A stretch of 64,000 bases of DNA, taken from the NCBI GenBank assembly GCA_019058315.1, contig JAHPZH010000001.1, forward strand, positions 96,001 through 160,000, in the 5' to 3' direction. This document shows, piece by piece, positions 4,873 to 11,077 of this stretch. The stretch's first letter is position 1. Each line of letters begins with the position of its first letter. The notes under the pieces are model-generated. The model was not told the DNA's origin. It ran no database searches and saw only the letters and a program-made list of their open reading frames with translations. The DNA comes from Candidatus Helarchaeota archaeon. Its GTDB lineage: Archaea > Asgardarchaeota > Lokiarchaeia > Helarchaeales > RDOG01. The translations under genes and the position numbers were made by a program.

Positions 4873-5565
4873 TCATACCTTTAAATCAAAAAACAAGTCA
4901 ATTCCATATTTATCATAAAGCTCATCAATCAGGTAAATCAATGGGTTTAAATGACTTTTATAACGATCCCAAACAAGATGAGTTGTTTTTTCTCTTCTTT
5001 GTGCAAAATGTAAGAATCCCTCGCTATCAAAACATGGATCTTTTGGTCGGGGCGTTACTTGAATCGTAGGAGGAACATCTGGATATTCTGCATTGAATAA
5101 AATTTTCGAAACTCTTACCACACCATCTCTCCATTTAGATGATACATAAATACCCTTTTCCGGGCGTTTTTTATCTATGTATTTCCATTCACTACCGTTT
5201 ATTTCCACTATGTATTTTAGATGGGTTTTAAACAACTCAGTTCCACTTTTAATTTTACTAGAAATACTCCCACCTATGGGTTCCGGAATCCAGTATATCT
5301 TATCTGTGTCTTGTGCTATTTCCCCTATCGTGTTGCGAAGAGATATTGGTACTTTTCGACCTTGTGTAATATAGTAAAGTTTTATTGTTAGCATGTTAAT
5401 TCCGACGTTTCTAACATTGCCATATCCTAAATTTAAAACGTCTAAGATTCGATCATTATATTTCCATAATAATCTACTGGCAACATCCCTGATAATCTCA
5501 TCTTCTTGAGATTCAACATAATCTGTGGTCCCAATAAGTGGATTAACCCAAGTTATTTCTTTCAA
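4873..5565 (-). CDS. ubiquitin-like domain (ending PEPIGG, aa 99) fused to an E2/UBC-fold domain
   Basis: aa 1-99 align with the ORF at 6522 (DKIYWxPEPIGG). The C-terminal part has UBC-like 'ILFNAEYPDVPP' and aligns with the ORF at 6870. Confidence 0.7.
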   Translation of the reverse strand: MKEITWVNPLIGTTDYVESQEDEIIRDVASRLLWKYNDRILDVLNLGYGNVRNVGINMLTIKLYYITQGRKVPISLRNTIGEIAQDTDKIYWIPEPIGGSISSKIKSGTELFKTHLKYIVEINGSEWKYIDKKRPEKGIYVSSKWRDGVVRVSKILFNAEYPDVPPTIQVTPRPKDPCFDSEGFLHFAQRREKTTHLVWDRYKSHLNPLIYLIDELYDKYGIDLFFDLKV

Positions 5566-5640
5566 TGTGTTTCCGTCTTTAATTTATTATCAATTATTTA
5601 GAAATTAAAATTAATATTTATAAATTAGGTTTTTAATTTG

Positions 5641-6405
5641 ATGAAAAGATTTTTCTTTGGTCCTGTTCTTTCTCGTAGATTGGGTTTTTCTTTAGGGATT
5701 GATATATTACCCGATAAAAAGACTTGTACTTTTGACTGTCTTTACTGTGAAATAGGAAAAACTCGACGAGTTACCTCCCCAAAAACCCGTTCTCCTTTCC
5801 TAATAGAAAATAAAAAGAATTTTGAATTACAATTAAGAAATATCTTATCTCAAGATATATTAATCGATACATTAACATTTGCAGGATATTCGGGTGAGGC
5901 AACATTAAATAGTGAATTAAATACATTTTTAAACATTACAAAATCTGTAAGATCTGACCTGCATAAAGAAAATATCCCAATATCCATTTTGACTAATTCC
6001 TCAACAATTAATTTTCCTGAAATTAGAAAAATATTAATGAATTTTGATAATATAGTTGCGAAATTAGATGTTGGAAATCAAGCTTCTTTTATGAAGGTGA
6101 ATCGTCCACATTTTTTAGTTCCACAAATTTCTGATATTATAAATGGTTTAAAGCAATTAAGGGAGGAGCTTGATAAGAATCGACTCGTTATTCAGACTCT
6201 TTTGTTTAGTGAAAATAATGATAGAAAAAACATTGATTCATTAATTGAAGCTTACAATATTATCAATCCAAATAAAATTCAACTTTACTCGATTGCCCGT
6301 CCACCCGCATATGCCGTAAAAAAAATAGATGGGCTTCAATTGGAACAGATAAAAAAGAATATGCAAGATGTATTAAAAACCAATATTAAAATTGAAACTT
6401 ATTAA
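5641..6405 (+). CDS. radical SAM Fe-S oxidoreductase (COG0731-like)
   Basis: FGPVLSRRLGFSLGIDI N-terminus, CTFDCLYC motif, LTNSS, AKLD. Confidence 0.85.
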   Translation: MKRFFFGPVLSRRLGFSLGIDILPDKKTCTFDCLYCEIGKTRRVTSPKTRSPFLIENKKNFELQLRNILSQDILIDTLTFAGYSGEATLNSELNTFLNITKSVRSDLHKENIPISILTNSSTINFPEIRKILMNFDNIVAKLDVGNQASFMKVNRPHFLVPQISDIINGLKQLREELDKNRLVIQTLLFSENNDRKNIDSLIEAYNIINPNKIQLYSIARPPAYAVKKIDGLQLEQIKKNMQDVLKTNIKIETY

Positions 6406-6521
6406 AAAGATATTTGTAGTATTGATTTTAAAATTTCATTAAACAAGAAAAACCAGAAAAATAAAAAAACATAATTTCTTTTATCCATTAATAAATTAAC
6501 TTATATTATGGTGCAAAATAG

Positions 6522-6830
6522 ATGCCAGAAATGACATATGTCTGCCCGCAAATAGGTAGTACAGATTATTTAGATTATGAAGAAGATACGACCTTCGAAG
6601 ATCAAATAAATGAACTAAAAGAGAAATATTTACGAGATATTCTTGATTACGTTCAGCAATTTCGAAATATACGTCAAAATATAGGATTAGATCAAATTAC
6701 TGTAAAGATACACTATATTGATGCTGAAGGTATCAAACAAACAATTGGACTTAAAACTTACGTTAAGGCAATGGCTGAACGTCATATTGATAAGATATAT
6801 TGGGAACCCGAACCCATTGGAGGGCATTAA
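6522..6830 (+). CDS. ubiquitin-like (beta-grasp) modifier precursor ending in GG-H
   Basis: 102 aa, C-terminus YWEPEPIGGH*. Paralogous to the N-terminus of 4873..5565, and near E2, JAB and E1 genes. Confidence 0.7.
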   Translation: MPEMTYVCPQIGSTDYLDYEEDTTFEDQINELKEKYLRDILDYVQQFRNIRQNIGLDQITVKIHYIDAEGIKQTIGLKTYVKAMAERHIDKIYWEPEPIGGH

Positions 6831-6869
6831 ACCAAACTTTTAATATAAGGGTATATCTAGAGGAAAAAA

Positions 6870-7232
6870 ATGCAGCAAACTTCTAAACAAATCTTTGCAA
6901 GTCATATTTACGATTTGACAGTTCGACCCGGTTATTATCGCTCTACATGGAAACTAATTAATAAAAAAATACCCTTAAAAGGAGCTTTCGGTCATTTTAT
7001 GGGCAAGGATTTTCGAGTAATTGTAATAAAAATCTTATTTAATTCAAAATATCCCGAAAATCCTCCAAAAATTATTAGCACTCCTCCTATCCGCGATGTT
7101 TGTTGGGATAATAAGGGTGTGTTACATTGGGCTAGATACGGGGGAGAGTTTGTATGGAGTAAATATAAAGATCACTCCAATCCATTAATTTATGTCGCAG
7201 ATGAAATTACTGAAAAATATAAAACCATGTAA
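6870..7232 (+). CDS. E2/UBC-fold protein with non-canonical active site
   Basis: 'IKILFNSKYPENPPKI' UBC signature, DVCWDNKGVLH in the HPN...C position, W..Y...NPL followed by a terminal helix. Has its own GAGG SD. Confidence 0.7.
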   Translation: MQQTSKQIFASHIYDLTVRPGYYRSTWKLINKKIPLKGAFGHFMGKDFRVIVIKILFNSKYPENPPKIISTPPIRDVCWDNKGVLHWARYGGEFVWSKYKDHSNPLIYVADEITEKYKTM

Positions 7233-7256: not shown

Positions 7257-8834
7257 TTACTTTTTAATTATTATTGCCACTAACACTAGAATTACTATCG
7301 CCATAGCACCAATTATTATCAAGAGAATAAGAGGATCAATTGGAAAACCCGCACCTGTCGGTATAGGTATAAAATTATCCATAGGTTCTGTAGACACTAA
7401 TGAAACTTTTTGTGCATATATATCATAATCACTTAAGCTTCTATTATCCTGCCACGTTATGATAGCAACTCCAGAACTAACGTAAATAATCTCATGATTT
7501 TCTTGCAAACCATATTCTGTACATACTGGCAGACCCTTACCAACATATTGCAAAATACCATTTTTATCGAGCATTTGTGCATAGATTGATCCATTAGCAT
7601 CTTCTTCTTTATCTATCCAAGAGATAAATGAATTTCCTGAGGAGTCGCAGCAAATCCTAGACTGTTGTTGATCACTGGGTGAAGTACAAACAGGGGTACC
7701 ATTATTTCTCCATAATGTGGTGCCTATTGGGTTAATTTTTTGAGTATAGATATCCTCCTCATAAATATTTCGTAAATCCTGCCATGTAATAATTGCATTT
7801 CCCTCACTATCACAGCAAATTTTTGGATAGAATTGGCTATATTCTGCTGTACAAATTGGTGTGCCATTGAGAGTCCAATAAACAGTACCAGTTGAGTCGA
7901 TTTTTTGTGCATATATATCTGTATATGTACCGTTTCTATTATCCACCCAAGTGATAATTGCATTACCAGAACTATCACAGCAAATATCAGGCCAATATTG
8001 ACTGTCAGTTGCATTACAAATTACAGTACCATTGTCTTGCAATTGTGAATGACCTGTAGAATTAATAAATTGACAATAGATATCGTTATCTGATGTTGTC
8101 ATATTTCTATAGTCTTGCCAAGTAATAATTGCGTTTCCTGCACCATAAACACTAATTTTTGGAAATGTTTGGATGTTTATAGCATTGCAAATTATTTTTC
8201 CGTTAGTTGTCCATTGGACAACTCCACTCGAATTAATTCTCTGGGCATGGATATTAGATGTTGCAAATTCATCATTTATCCATGTAAGAATCGCACCGCC
8301 TAAATTATCGCTGCAAATTTCTATCCTTGATTCATCATTAGGCAAACCAGTAATTTGCACACCGTTGGCAGTCCATTGCGTAATCCCGTTTGCGTCCACT
8401 CTTTGAGCTTTAATATTTTGAGTATCTTCCCATGCGATGATTGCCCCCCCAGAACCATCAGAACATATCTGGGGAAGAGTTTGAGAACCAGGAGAGTTAC
8501 AAATTAATGTGCCGTTAACATCCCATAATGGATTCCCATTTGAATCGATTCTTTGAACATAAATACTAGAAATGTCTCTGGAATCCGCCCAAGTAATAAT
8601 TGCACCACCAGTTCCATCACTGCATATTTCAGGATTATATTGGTCTTGTGGCGTTTGTACACATACAGGTGTACCATTAGCTGCCCATTGCGTACTTAAA
8701 CCATTAGCCTTGAGTTTAGATTTCTCATCAATTTTTAAAAGTAAGACATTTTGATTGCTAAACCCTGTATATGAATTTATAGCTAAAATGGAAAACATCA
8801 AGATTGGGATTAAAATTAAAAACCTTTTCTTCAT
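7257..8834 (-). CDS. membrane-anchored secreted beta-propeller repeat protein
   Basis: N-terminal signal-like segment, eight ~55-60 aa repeats (P.ICxDxxG.AIITW.D...DIYAQK), C-terminal TM helix followed by KK. Confidence 0.75.
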   Translation of the reverse strand: MKKRFLILIPILMFSILAINSYTGFSNQNVLLLKIDEKSKLKANGLSTQWAANGTPVCVQTPQDQYNPEICSDGTGGAIITWADSRDISSIYVQRIDSNGNPLWDVNGTLICNSPGSQTLPQICSDGSGGAIIAWEDTQNIKAQRVDANGITQWTANGVQITGLPNDESRIEICSDNLGGAILTWINDEFATSNIHAQRINSSGVVQWTTNGKIICNAINIQTFPKISVYGAGNAIITWQDYRNMTTSDNDIYCQFINSTGHSQLQDNGTVICNATDSQYWPDICCDSSGNAIITWVDNRNGTYTDIYAQKIDSTGTVYWTLNGTPICTAEYSQFYPKICCDSEGNAIITWQDLRNIYEEDIYTQKINPIGTTLWRNNGTPVCTSPSDQQQSRICCDSSGNSFISWIDKEEDANGSIYAQMLDKNGILQYVGKGLPVCTEYGLQENHEIIYVSSGVAIITWQDNRSLSDYDIYAQKVSLVSTEPMDNFIPIPTGAGFPIDPLILLIIIGAMAIVILVLVAIIIKK

Positions 8835-8949
8835 TTTTAACAAATCCAATTTTTATTAAAATATATCAAATATACTGAGGTTATAACATATAAATTGGAG
8901 TAATAGTTCATAGAGAAATAGAATAATTAAGTTAGAAAGTCGTGTAGAA

Positions 8950-10023
8950 ATGCGAGTAATTATAGATTCGTCGGTAATTGAATCATGTAAGCAAACAATT
9001 CAAGAATGTTATGGTGAAAAAGCGTTTAAAGAAGTAGGGGGGTATATTTTAGGAATGTTTGACGGCGAAAATTTCCAAGTTAAATCCCTTTATCTTGATA
9101 AATATGCTGAATCGACTTCTATCAGAATTAAACTAAGCGTTGATGCATTCCATGAAGTTGAGGAAATACTTTCCCAATCTCCTGAAATGATGTATATTGG
9201 GACATGGCATGTTCATCCTGGGACAGATAAACCCGCATACTCAAATGTTGATGTTTCAACTCTATTTTTAGAACGGGTAATTATAGACACAGATAATCCT
9301 GAAAGTTTGAAATGCCCAAAGATTCATATAATTTTTAATAATTCTCTAACTGAATATAGTTGTTATACTATGGATATATTTTTTAATTTTTTATGCGAAC
9401 CTCTTGATTCATCTGTTGCCAAAAATTTAGTTGAAGCTGAATTGCTTGAAATTGGGCTAGATGCCCTTACGGAATCTAAAACCTTGCTAAAACTAGAAAC
9501 TCTTGAAAGTTATATCAATTTACAAAAAAATATCGAAGAAGTGTATAATAATCTCGATTTAATTTCTGACCAAATCAATTTTGCACTTGACTTTTTTAAT
9601 GAACTTGAATGGTATAATAAAGTTGAAAATAAAATCGAAAAAATAATTAAGAATGAGATTAAAAATGGAGAAAGAATTGGAGTAATCTCTTCTGAAAACG
9701 AGAAAAAAATCGAAAGCTTGAAATATAGACCTAAGAATATAAAAAATTCATATACAGATGGATCTTTAGTAGGTTTTTGGGTATTATTTCCATACGAAAG
9801 TATCAGCGATATGTTTTTGAAAATTTTTTATGCTAATTTCTTCAAAAAAATTGAGACTGAACCTGGAGATGTCTTCTTATTCTTCCTAGTTCAAAAAATT
9901 AAGGAAGAAATCATGATTAAACCGTTTTTTTTAAATTTCACATCATTTGAAGGAATATCATATATAGAATTAGAAATGACTTTGATTGAGGATGACAATG
10001 AAAATAATGTTTCAGAATCCTGA
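8950..10023 (+). CDS. JAB/MPN+ (JAMM) metalloprotease with C-terminal extension
   Basis: EVGGYILG and GTWHVHPGTDKPAYSNVD (E...HxH...S..D). Confidence 0.85.
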   Translation: MRVIIDSSVIESCKQTIQECYGEKAFKEVGGYILGMFDGENFQVKSLYLDKYAESTSIRIKLSVDAFHEVEEILSQSPEMMYIGTWHVHPGTDKPAYSNVDVSTLFLERVIIDTDNPESLKCPKIHIIFNNSLTEYSCYTMDIFFNFLCEPLDSSVAKNLVEAELLEIGLDALTESKTLLKLETLESYINLQKNIEEVYNNLDLISDQINFALDFFNELEWYNKVENKIEKIIKNEIKNGERIGVISSENEKKIESLKYRPKNIKNSYTDGSLVGFWVLFPYESISDMFLKIFYANFFKKIETEPGDVFLFFLVQKIKEEIMIKPFFLNFTSFEGISYIELEMTLIEDDNENNVSES

Positions 10024-11077
10024 TACGGGTGAAACAATATATATCGAGGATGAGGAGCTTCTTATCAGAGATATTGCCAATAAAATAATGAAAGAATACA
10101 ATCTAGAAAAACCACCAATCTTCTTCACCCTTATGAAAGAAGACCCAGTATCAGAAACTTATCTAGAAGAAGATGATAAATTAAAAACAATTAATGAAGA
10201 AAAATTGGATGTAAAGACACCAATATGGTGGCGATCGTCAGAAATTGATCTAGATTTAATTTATAAACTTCGAACAGAACGCTATGATAGATCGGGTTAT
10301 GAGCTAGAAAAAATCGGAAAAACCAAGGTATTAATTGCAGGTGTGGGATTATTAGGAGCGGATATTGCGTTTGATTGCGCAGTTTTAGGAATAAAGGACC
10401 TTACAATAATTGATTATGGGTCTGTAGATTGGTTTAATATCTATCGACAAAGTCTCTATTCCAAAAAAGATGTATTTAAATCGAAAGTTGAAGTGGCAAA
10501 AGAAAATCTCGAGGATATGGGGGGTGTAAATGTTAAATCATTAAAAATTGAGATTCCAAGTTTTATTTATCTGCCAGAAGATAAAAGTATAATACAAAAT
10601 TCCATTTTAAAAATTGAGCCTGAAGTTAAAAAATGTGATATAATAATTACTGCTCTTGATACATTCAGCGCTAGAATGATAATGCAAACTTTAGCTTTAG
10701 CAAATGATAAAATCCTTATTAATACGGCGGCTGGTCTAGTAGGTGGGGTAGTTCAATTAGTGAGAATTAAGCAAAATGATCCTTGCTTGGCATGTGGTAT
10801 TTATTTTGATAGAAATCAAGATGTGGGTGCGTGCACTTTGGCATCGTTTGGTACTCCTAAAATCATATCTGGAATTACAATGGAAATTTTGACAAATCTG
10901 ATTGAAGAAAGAGAAATCAAATATAACCATTTTAAATATATTCCCCAAACTTACCAAATAGAACAAAGTAATTTTATAAAAGGCAAAGAGTTCTGTGATT
11001 TTTGCGATAGGGAGAAAGGAATTATATTTAAATATAAAAATGGAGAAAAAAAAGCCCTAATTGATTGGTTATATTGA
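9998..11077 (+). CDS. E1-like (ThiF/MoeB) adenylating enzyme with N-terminal Ubl-like domain
   Basis: GVGLLG, DYGSVDWFNIYRQ, SKVEVAK, DTFSAR, two Zn CxxC motifs (PCLAC, FCDFC) and a candidate catalytic Cys (VGACTL). Overlaps the JAB gene. Confidence 0.88.
   Translation: MKIMFQNPDTGETIYIEDEELLIRDIANKIMKEYNLEKPPIFFTLMKEDPVSETYLEEDDKLKTINEEKLDVKTPIWWRSSEIDLDLIYKLRTERYDRSGYELEKIGKTKVLIAGVGLLGADIAFDCAVLGIKDLTIIDYGSVDWFNIYRQSLYSKKDVFKSKVEVAKENLEDMGGVNVKSLKIEIPSFIYLPEDKSIIQNSILKIEPEVKKCDIIITALDTFSARMIMQTLALANDKILINTAAGLVGGVVQLVRIKQNDPCLACGIYFDRNQDVGACTLASFGTPKIISGITMEILTNLIEEREIKYNHFKYIPQTYQIEQSNFIKGKEFCDFCDREKGIIFKYKNGEKKALIDWLY

Follow-up and report, generated by a model that had tools for sequence, protein, structure and literature searches.

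The window analysed here is a 64,000-nucleotide stretch of the genome of Candidatus Helarchaeota archaeon (assembly GCA_019058315.1, contig JAHPZH010000001.1, positions 96,001 to 160,000 of the forward strand), and it carries genes for ubiquitin-like (Ubl) proteins, E2-like proteins, a JAB peptidase and an E1-like adenylating enzyme. Together these probably constitute a small Ubl tagging system that has not been described previously, in which both E2-type proteins lack the usual catalytic Cys and the reactive site has probably moved to a conserved Cys eight residues earlier. The relevant features, numbered by window position, are:

4873–5565, minus strand: Ubl–E2-like fusion of 230 residues (open reading frame and AlphaFold2 model).
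Residues 1–99 of the fusion, minus strand: Ubl of beta-grasp fold with C-terminal EPIGG (Gly-Gly at 5269–5274); in Foldseek the N-terminal half matches ubiquitin and RAWUL.
Residues ~105–230 of the fusion, minus strand: E2-like UBC domain, 41% identical to the stand-alone E2-like protein.
5008–5040, minus strand: loop DPCFDSEGFLH of the fusion, containing Asp176, Cys178 (5032–5034) and His186 (5008–5010), from translation.
6522–6830, plus strand: stand-alone Ubl of 102 residues with the tail EPIGG-H-stop (Gly-Gly at 6819–6824), from its open reading frame.
6870–7232, plus strand: stand-alone E2-like protein of 120 residues with a minimal UBC fold (open reading frame, AlphaFold2 model and structure matches).
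7095–7127, plus strand: loop DVCWDNKGVLH of the stand-alone protein, containing Asp76 (7095–7097), Cys78 (7101–7103) and His86 (7125–7127), from translation.
5221–5223, minus strand, and 6903–6905, plus strand: invariant helix-1 His of an F-x-x-H motif (His115 in the fusion), from alignment and site rates.
8950–10023, plus strand: JAB/JAMM metallopeptidase of 357 residues (PADLOC JAB, 1.6e-10; Pfam Prok-JAB weak).
9986–11077, plus strand: E1-like adenylating enzyme of 363 residues (Pfam ThiF, 3.3e-31).

The Ubl/E2-like pair occurs twice in the window, once as separate genes and once as a fusion. For the E2-like parts, the identity given above is between the 120-residue protein and residues 106–220 of the fusion, and the Ubl parts are 42% identical when the first 99 residues of the fusion are compared with the stand-alone Ubl. 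The stand-alone Ubl reading frame lies just upstream of the 120-residue E2-like gene and has its own ribosome-binding site. EPIGG is present in both Ubls, followed by a His and a stop codon in the stand-alone protein, and running straight into the E2-like domain in the fusion. The split pair is followed by the JAB gene and the overlapping E1-like gene, with the gene for a 530-residue repeat protein in between on the opposite strand.

Both loop motifs had been picked out in an earlier note on this DNA, and both are found where that note placed them; its statement that each E2-like domain contains exactly one Cys also agrees with the sequences of the two paralogues. In the register proposed there, the Asp, Cys and His of the loop fall on the canonical E2 positions of the HPN His, the HPN Asn and the catalytic Cys, respectively, and the same register was recovered with a family profile, with hhalign and in a fold model. 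Compared with PDB sequences, the family profile matches only UBC-fold proteins, the best being UEV1 (E 0.014–0.022), and the alignment with UEV1 is ungapped from YPxxPP through C-x-D-x-x-G. Against three canonical HPN E2s of the same genome, hhalign places Asp76 at the His, Cys78 at the Asn and His86 at the catalytic Cys, in a weak match (E 0.012). Pfam, NCBIfam and PADLOC contain no model for the E2-like or Ubl proteins of the window, and the gathering threshold of UQ_con (PF00179) is not reached, only two of 23 family members obtaining E 0.014.

Structural comparison of the whole fusion with Foldseek was swamped by the ubiquitin-fold half, and the E2 domain was therefore folded by itself. 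The AlphaFold2 model of the 120-residue E2-like protein, calculated from the family alignment, has a predicted local distance difference test score of 87.7 and a predicted template modelling score of 0.81, and in it helix 1 is followed by a meander of four strands, a loop rich in hairpins and helix 2, beyond which there are no C-terminal helices. When the model was compared exhaustively with 48,161 PDB representatives, the best 50 matches listed all belonged to the UBC superfamily. E2, UEV and RWD chains were matched over 104–115 residues with Z scores of at most 10.0; among the best 50 listed, the VPS37A UEV scores 10.0, Mms2 9.3 and many E2s 8–9, and values of about 7 are seen for RWD, UFC1, Atg3 and Atg10. 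The Foldseek list contains 140 chains with Z ≥ 8, the best 50 listed being E2 or UEV throughout, and a shape search of the ESM Atlas led to E2-CBASS, UQ_con, Mod_r, Prok-E2_B, RWD and FANCL clusters. By the ungapped alignment, Cys78 falls on the first hairpin strand after strand 4, opposite the canonical Cys position, so that the Cys and the loop His occupy the two ends of one short hairpin. At the active site of canonical E2s the HPN Asn and catalytic Cys positions adjoin, and because they are neighbours, it is sterically plausible on general grounds that the nucleophile could shift across the hairpin.

The family to which these domains belong is rare: when 1.84 billion cluster representatives were searched exhaustively with HMMER, only 32 clusters were obtained at E ≤ 0.001, of which P0043 was excluded as spurious-looking. 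Members are mostly Ubl–E2 fusions of 205–260 residues, and some are stand-alone E2-like proteins. For the conservation counts, 47 sequences were aligned with MAFFT; counts were also made over 33 representatives of 50%-identity clusters. The earlier note had made its reading depend on conservation of the Cys among homologues, and at 20–30% identity the Cys is indeed kept in 44 of the 47 sequences (30/33 clusters). Because the same column is retained so widely, the motif is shared by homology and not by chance. The loop Asp is kept in 42 of 47 sequences (29/33 clusters), with Asn in three and His in two of the others. At the canonical Cys position, only 30 of the 47 sequences (16/33 clusters) retain the His, and Asp, Asn, Cys, Met, Lys, Ser, Pro or Gly occurs in the others.

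In an alignment of 23 sequences, in which mean column identity is 31%, the relocated Cys is one of 12 columns that do not vary. Ranked by rate over 120 sites, Cys78 and Asp76 belong to the slowest class (ranks 17 and 18), which also includes YPxxPP, the hairpin Gly, a Trp, the NPL motif and the helix-1 His, and His86 is at rank 32. The helix-1 His of the F-x-x-H motif is invariant in the 46 sequences that cover the site and holds rank 2, above the loop His. Since helix 1 of the canonical UBC fold is expected to be far from the active site, a role for this His in E1 binding or packing seems more likely. In a maximum-likelihood tree, the His column undergoes at least five changes between His and non-His, and the Cys column three. 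One well-supported clade of seven clusters has no loop His in any of them, and its loci L005 and L006 retain an intact JAB and the E1 Cys. As complete operons persist in this clade, the loop His is a subfamily helper at most; its presence in three deep branches indicates that it is probably ancestral, and it was later lost repeatedly, at least four or five times, while the operon persisted. Of the Cys-His(-Asp) unit suggested in the earlier note, the Cys and the Asp are thus retained in the family, but the His is not a constant part.

Some family members deserve mention for their variation at these sites. Clusters P0025 (L006:8001-8372) and P0036, both from the clade that lacks the loop His, have Cys at both the HPN-Asn and the canonical positions (DLCFNHDGELCW and DPCFWNGGTLCY, respectively), and may represent either intermediates of a nucleophile shift or a disulfide pair. 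In P0045 (L003:56-2035) and P0032 (L027:371-1708), both on contigs of ~2 kb, a single polypeptide comprises Ubl, E2-like domain, a long charged linker and JAB, and the Cys is replaced by Ser in the former and by Arg in the latter. Several members without the loop His have a His 3–5 residues past the Cys in the hairpin turn (CFNH, CFAH, CFDEH, CFSH), which, speculatively, hints at a polar partner that moves.

The E1-like enzyme of the window has its ThiF domain at residues ~105–311, two CxxC pairs, and a Cys at position 283 (10832–10834). This Cys is invariant in all eight E1s examined, where it is part of a G/K-C-T-x-A motif past the first CxxC. In a PDB search with the window E1, the ATG7 adenylation domain is closest (6e-14), followed by Uba1 (~1e-10), MoeB (6e-7), and ThiF and UBA5 (~1e-5). 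Using phmmer, Cys283 (GACT) is aligned with the Cys of QMCTVTRPG in yeast Atg7, which is the catalytic Cys507 of the crossover loop. Judged by this alignment, the window enzyme is a thiol E1. A predicted complex of the E1 with the stand-alone E2-like protein scored 0.30 against a mark of 0.32, which allows no verdict and is evidence neither way. Ahead of the ThiF domain is an N-terminal extension of ~100 residues (9986–10300, plus strand) that is conserved among the E1s of the family. By eye it is like the start of the Ubl (IMFQNPDTGETIYIEDEE compared with TYVCPQIGSTDYLDYEE); BLASTP of the ~100 residues against the Ubls is not significant (E 0.05–0.3). The extension could be a built-in beta-grasp domain that recruits E2 or Ubl.

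As for the JAB protein, the catalytic domain is contained in the first ~105 residues and its E...HxHx7SxxD motif is intact; the long C-terminal remainder is uncharacterised. The JAMM motif is intact in five of five orthologous loci. Across loci, the Ubl C-termini read GGH, GG plus nine residues, GG plus six residues, or GG-stop, and residues beyond GG call for a processing peptidase.

The recurring gene set consists of a Ubl ending in GG, an E2-like protein (or a Ubl–E2 fusion), a JAB, and an E1 (or a JAB–E1 fusion). It occurs in a few Asgard archaea and GC-rich bacteria, at loci whose GC content ranges from 26% to 65%, in the following arrangements:

L005: HD-CE protein, Ubl–E2 fusion, JAB, ThiF, Clp_N.
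L006/L007: caspase-like peptidase, HD-CE, Ubl, E2-like, JAB–E1 fusion of 667 residues.
L008 (Helarchaeota): Ubl, E2-like, JAB, with ThiF two genes further.
L009/L010: Band_7, Ubl, E2-like, JAB, ThiF.
Further Asgard genomes: E2-like or Ubl–E2, followed directly by a JAMM open reading frame or a JAB–E1 fusion.

A trigger factor encoded on the same 3.2-Mb contig identifies L006/L007 as bacterial. JAB and E1 are fused in L006, L028 and L030, and are separate overlapping genes in the window. The distribution is patchy, since the E2-like gene is found in only seven of 301 sampled genomes of the phylum. In relatives, JAB and E1 are not adjacent to the fused paralogue, which would therefore depend on both in trans. 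Gene calling at these loci yielded neither RING nor HECT genes, which fits the suggestion in the earlier note that transfer may proceed without an E3. The genome of the window also has five separate canonical UQ_con loci, and the present gene set is therefore an extra system. At L012 (G000:C2:153495-156971), a canonical HPN-type E2 of 175 residues abuts a gene for a 267-residue MPN/JAB+ protein with the motif HSHPSYGLFMSTED; this pair belongs to a eukaryote-like ubiquitin set, apart from the system described here.

Prokaryotic operons with E1, E2, JAB and Ubl genes have been classed as 6a–6e (Iyer et al. 2006, PMC1779556). The present gene set falls in this class, and its architecture is nearest to 6e, or Type I Bub (6E.1). 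In the Bub system, the JAB domain of BubCD cuts the BubAB Ubl–E2 fusion after Gly, and an E2-fold domain formerly called inactive, since it has no Cys, was shown to be catalytic (Ye et al. 2024, PMC11601596). As in Type I Bub, the Ubl is fused to a minimal UBC-fold E2 without C-terminal helices, or a stand-alone E2 is placed between Ubl and JAB/E1; the combination of a JAB with a single-domain E1, the absence of an E3 and a non-canonical E2 site are likewise shared. In Bub, the canonical Cys position of the E2 is taken by a Ser, accompanied by a His at +2 and an Asp, all invariant, whereas no S-x-H is present at or near that position in our family, where the residues ahead of NPL are variable. 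The Bub E1 lacks the crossover-loop Cys and uses an invariant Tyr, whereas Cys283 is invariant in the present E1s and no invariant Tyr is found in the Cys283 stretch of the eight enzymes. Furthermore, all Bub operons carry BubE (DUF6527, PF20137), for which there is no match in the genome of the window (94% complete) and none is recorded on the neighbours in L005–L010, and, unlike in Type I Bub, the Ubl is one beta-grasp domain. No match to Bub at the sequence level was seen; Bub entries were also missing from the PDB hits listed for the JAB, E1 and E2 sequences, which says nothing on kinship.

With canonical E2s and UEVs (Mms2/Uev1, TSG101, VPS37A), the E2-like proteins share the UBC fold, YPxxPP ahead of strand 4, the length of the loop from PP to the hairpin, and a DxxG-type hairpin turn. 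Unlike canonical E2s, they have D-x-C in place of HPN and, in most members, a residue other than Cys at the canonical position; they also lack helices 3 and 4 and have an additional hairpin ahead of helix 2. A UBC fold without Cys at the canonical position is also what defines the likeness to UEVs and pseudo-E2s, from which clusters P0025 and P0036 depart. Among E1s of solved structure, the closest counterpart is ATG7, through its adenylation domain, where the PDB alignment of the present E1 begins, and through the crossover-loop Cys. The absence of C-terminal helices from the present E2-like domain and the place of its candidate nucleophile, on a hairpin past strand 4, agree with what has been described for ATG3, ATG10 and Cap2 (6b, CBASS). 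The E2 and E1 described here are unfused, unlike Cap2, and the fold match to ATG3 and ATG10 is weaker (Z 7.0–7.5, compared with 9–10 for canonical E2s and UEVs); no Pfam matches to the ATG3/ATG10 or E2-CBASS families were obtained for the E2-like proteins. An equation of DPC with the 'HPC' motif of Atg3 was considered and rejected, as the Cys of Atg3 would lie much further from strand 4.

For the E2 domains of 6c, a Cys has been reported in place of the HPN His, together with the canonical Cys (PMC1779556, Table 1). These domains form one polypeptide with the E1, whereas the present E2-like proteins carry their Cys in place of the HPN Asn and mostly have another residue at the canonical position. 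As regards Bil (6d), the present E1 is a protein of 363 residues with a single ThiF domain, and the E2 has no canonical Cys. Varying Cys locations in E2s were reportedly discussed by Burroughs and colleagues in 2008. No description of the E2-like family was found in the literature searched.

Based on the sequences and the fold model, we favour, with moderate confidence, an E3-less, thiol-based Ubl conjugation system that uses a new E2-like family with the nucleophile at the HPN-Asn position. All parts of a cascade are present with intact catalytic signatures, and within the E2-like component no residue other than the relocated Cys is a candidate for the nucleophile. In such a cascade, the JAB would cut the Ubl precursors after Gly-Gly, which would remove one His from the stand-alone Ubl, and free Ubl and E2-like protein from the fusion. 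This step is suggested by the likeness to BubAB/BubCD; the JAMM motif and the tails with GG plus extension are observed. The Atg7-like E1 would adenylate the Ubl C-terminus and load the Ubl onto the crossover-loop Cys283, as the invariant Cys aligned to Cys507 of Atg7 suggests. The Ubl would then be handed to the single conserved Cys of the E2-like protein (Cys78 in the stand-alone protein, Cys178 in the fusion), and from there be moved to a target amine with no E3. On the alignments, Cys78 is a reasonably probable thioester site. In the Helarchaeota subfamily, His86/His186 would probably tune either the Cys or the amine that attacks. The Asp that is conserved two residues ahead of the Cys could be structural; its likely part is to shape the loop, in the manner of the HPN His of canonical E2s. 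As for the origin of the site, we regard the chances as evenly divided that the nucleophile left the canonical Cys position for that of the HPN Asn, on the other side of the hairpin, and that the old position was thereby freed for His and other residues; under such a shift, P0025 and P0036 would be living intermediates.

Several observations weigh against a catalytic role for the relocated Cys. The unrelated UEV1 proteins of Plasmodium and Leishmania also have Cys at the HPN-Asn position, and a Cys there can thus be a packing residue; in canonical E2s the HPN Asn is partly buried. The other invariant columns of the family are mostly structural (Tyr, Pro, Gly, Trp). Arg, Ser and Thr replace the Cys in one sequence each (3/47). 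On the other side, the Ser of P0045 would keep a nucleophile, and the one fully Cys-less member, P0037, has no adjacent JAB or E1 on its 8-kb contig. Finally, the E1-only Ubl systems SAMP and Urm1 illustrate that an E1 Cys alone is no proof of an E2 thioester.

The serious rival is accordingly a UEV-like pseudo-E2, that is, a non-catalytic adaptor for Ubl, E1 or target, with a Cys that serves in packing or redox sensing, and with all chemistry performed by the E1 alone as in SAMP/UbaA and Urm1/Uba4. Loss of the canonical Cys is what such a protein would display, the best fold and sequence matches lean towards UEVs (VPS37A and Mms2 by Z score, UEV1 by E value), some UEV1 proteins share the Cys position, and three family members have no Cys. 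We nevertheless consider it unlikely, since a lone, non-disulfide, non-metal Cys retained in 44 of 47 sequences over such distances is unusual for packing, and since a JAB and an E1 with a Cys are encoded in tight linkage with the gene. The case for an inactive domain was, moreover, also made for the 6e domain in 2006 (PMC1779556), and was overturned by experiment (PMC11601596). Migration of the active site, which the earlier note preferred to a dead UEV, is partly supported, as regards the UBC fold in a setting of E1, JAB and Ubl and the retention of the Cys, but not as regards a Cys-His unit.

The D-x-C...H arrangement that is kept in both window paralogues and throughout the Helarchaeota clade would also suit a Cys-His(-Asp) hydrolase or acyltransferase, with Cys78, His86 and Asp76 as the triad of a thiol protease, deconjugase or acyltransferase. 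We regard this as highly improbable: the His is missing in 17 of 47 sequences, including a whole clade of which two sampled loci are complete operons, a dedicated JAB peptidase is already part of the operon, and the fold matches listed are all UBC-like, with no thiol-protease fold among them. The protease or acyltransferase role raised in the earlier note is not supported. Just as remote is a sulfur relay of the ThiS/MoaD/SAMP type, in which a persulfide on the E2-like Cys would act in a rhodanese-like manner to make a Ubl thiocarboxylate; the E1 is of the ThiF/MoeB type and a radical SAM gene lies between the window paralogues, but that gene is not adjacent in related loci, linked genes for thiamine or molybdopterin are absent, the PDB searches put the E1 nearer to ATG7 and Uba1 than to MoeB and ThiF, and UBC folds are not known to act as sulfur carriers.

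In the window, the radical SAM gene (5638–6405, plus strand) is situated between the two divergent Ubl/E2 copies and matches viperin models weakly (PADLOC pVip, 2.9e-07; NCBIfam, 1.4e-06, far under the cut-off); as a component of the system it was dropped, being unlinked in related loci. The 530-residue protein between the E2-like and JAB genes (7257–8849, minus strand) has an N-terminal signal or transmembrane segment, a C-terminal transmembrane helix, and some eight copies of a repeat based on C-S/C-D-x-x-G-x-A-I-I-T-W. No Pfam family covers the protein, and it is not found at the same position in the relatives L008 and L024. Elsewhere, a protein with an HD-CE domain (PF24391, 3.4e-31 and 2.3e-08) is encoded ahead of the four-gene set at L005:6198-7907 and L006:6169-7683, and a caspase-like Peptidase_C14 or a Band_7/SPFH protein with a zinc ribbon also precedes the set (L006:3413-4933 and L009:6116-7669). 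Transposases and an NB-ARC gene are present near bacterial and other loci. These loci look like a conflict or defence island, in which the HD-CE, Peptidase_C14 and Band_7/SPFH proteins could be effectors or targets.

E2s are usually recognised, or dismissed as dead, by the HPN...Cys signature. If the E3-less thiol system proposed here is correct, the family would represent a third E2 solution beside the canonical Cys and the Ser of Bub, one in which thiol chemistry is retained with the nucleophile moved by eight residues. The rules by which pseudo-E2s and UEVs are annotated would then have to be reconsidered. A genuine shift of the nucleophile would, in addition, be the first case of active-site migration documented for the UBC fold. 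The system is compact, with four proteins, and its natural orthologues without the loop His can be used to probe the need for a neighbouring His. In Asgard archaea, a eukaryote-like YPxxPP E2 core would be joined with an Atg7-like E1, and another non-canonical pair of Atg7-like E1 and E2 would exist beside the canonical ubiquitin machinery, which bears on the diversification of eukaryotic Ubl cascades.

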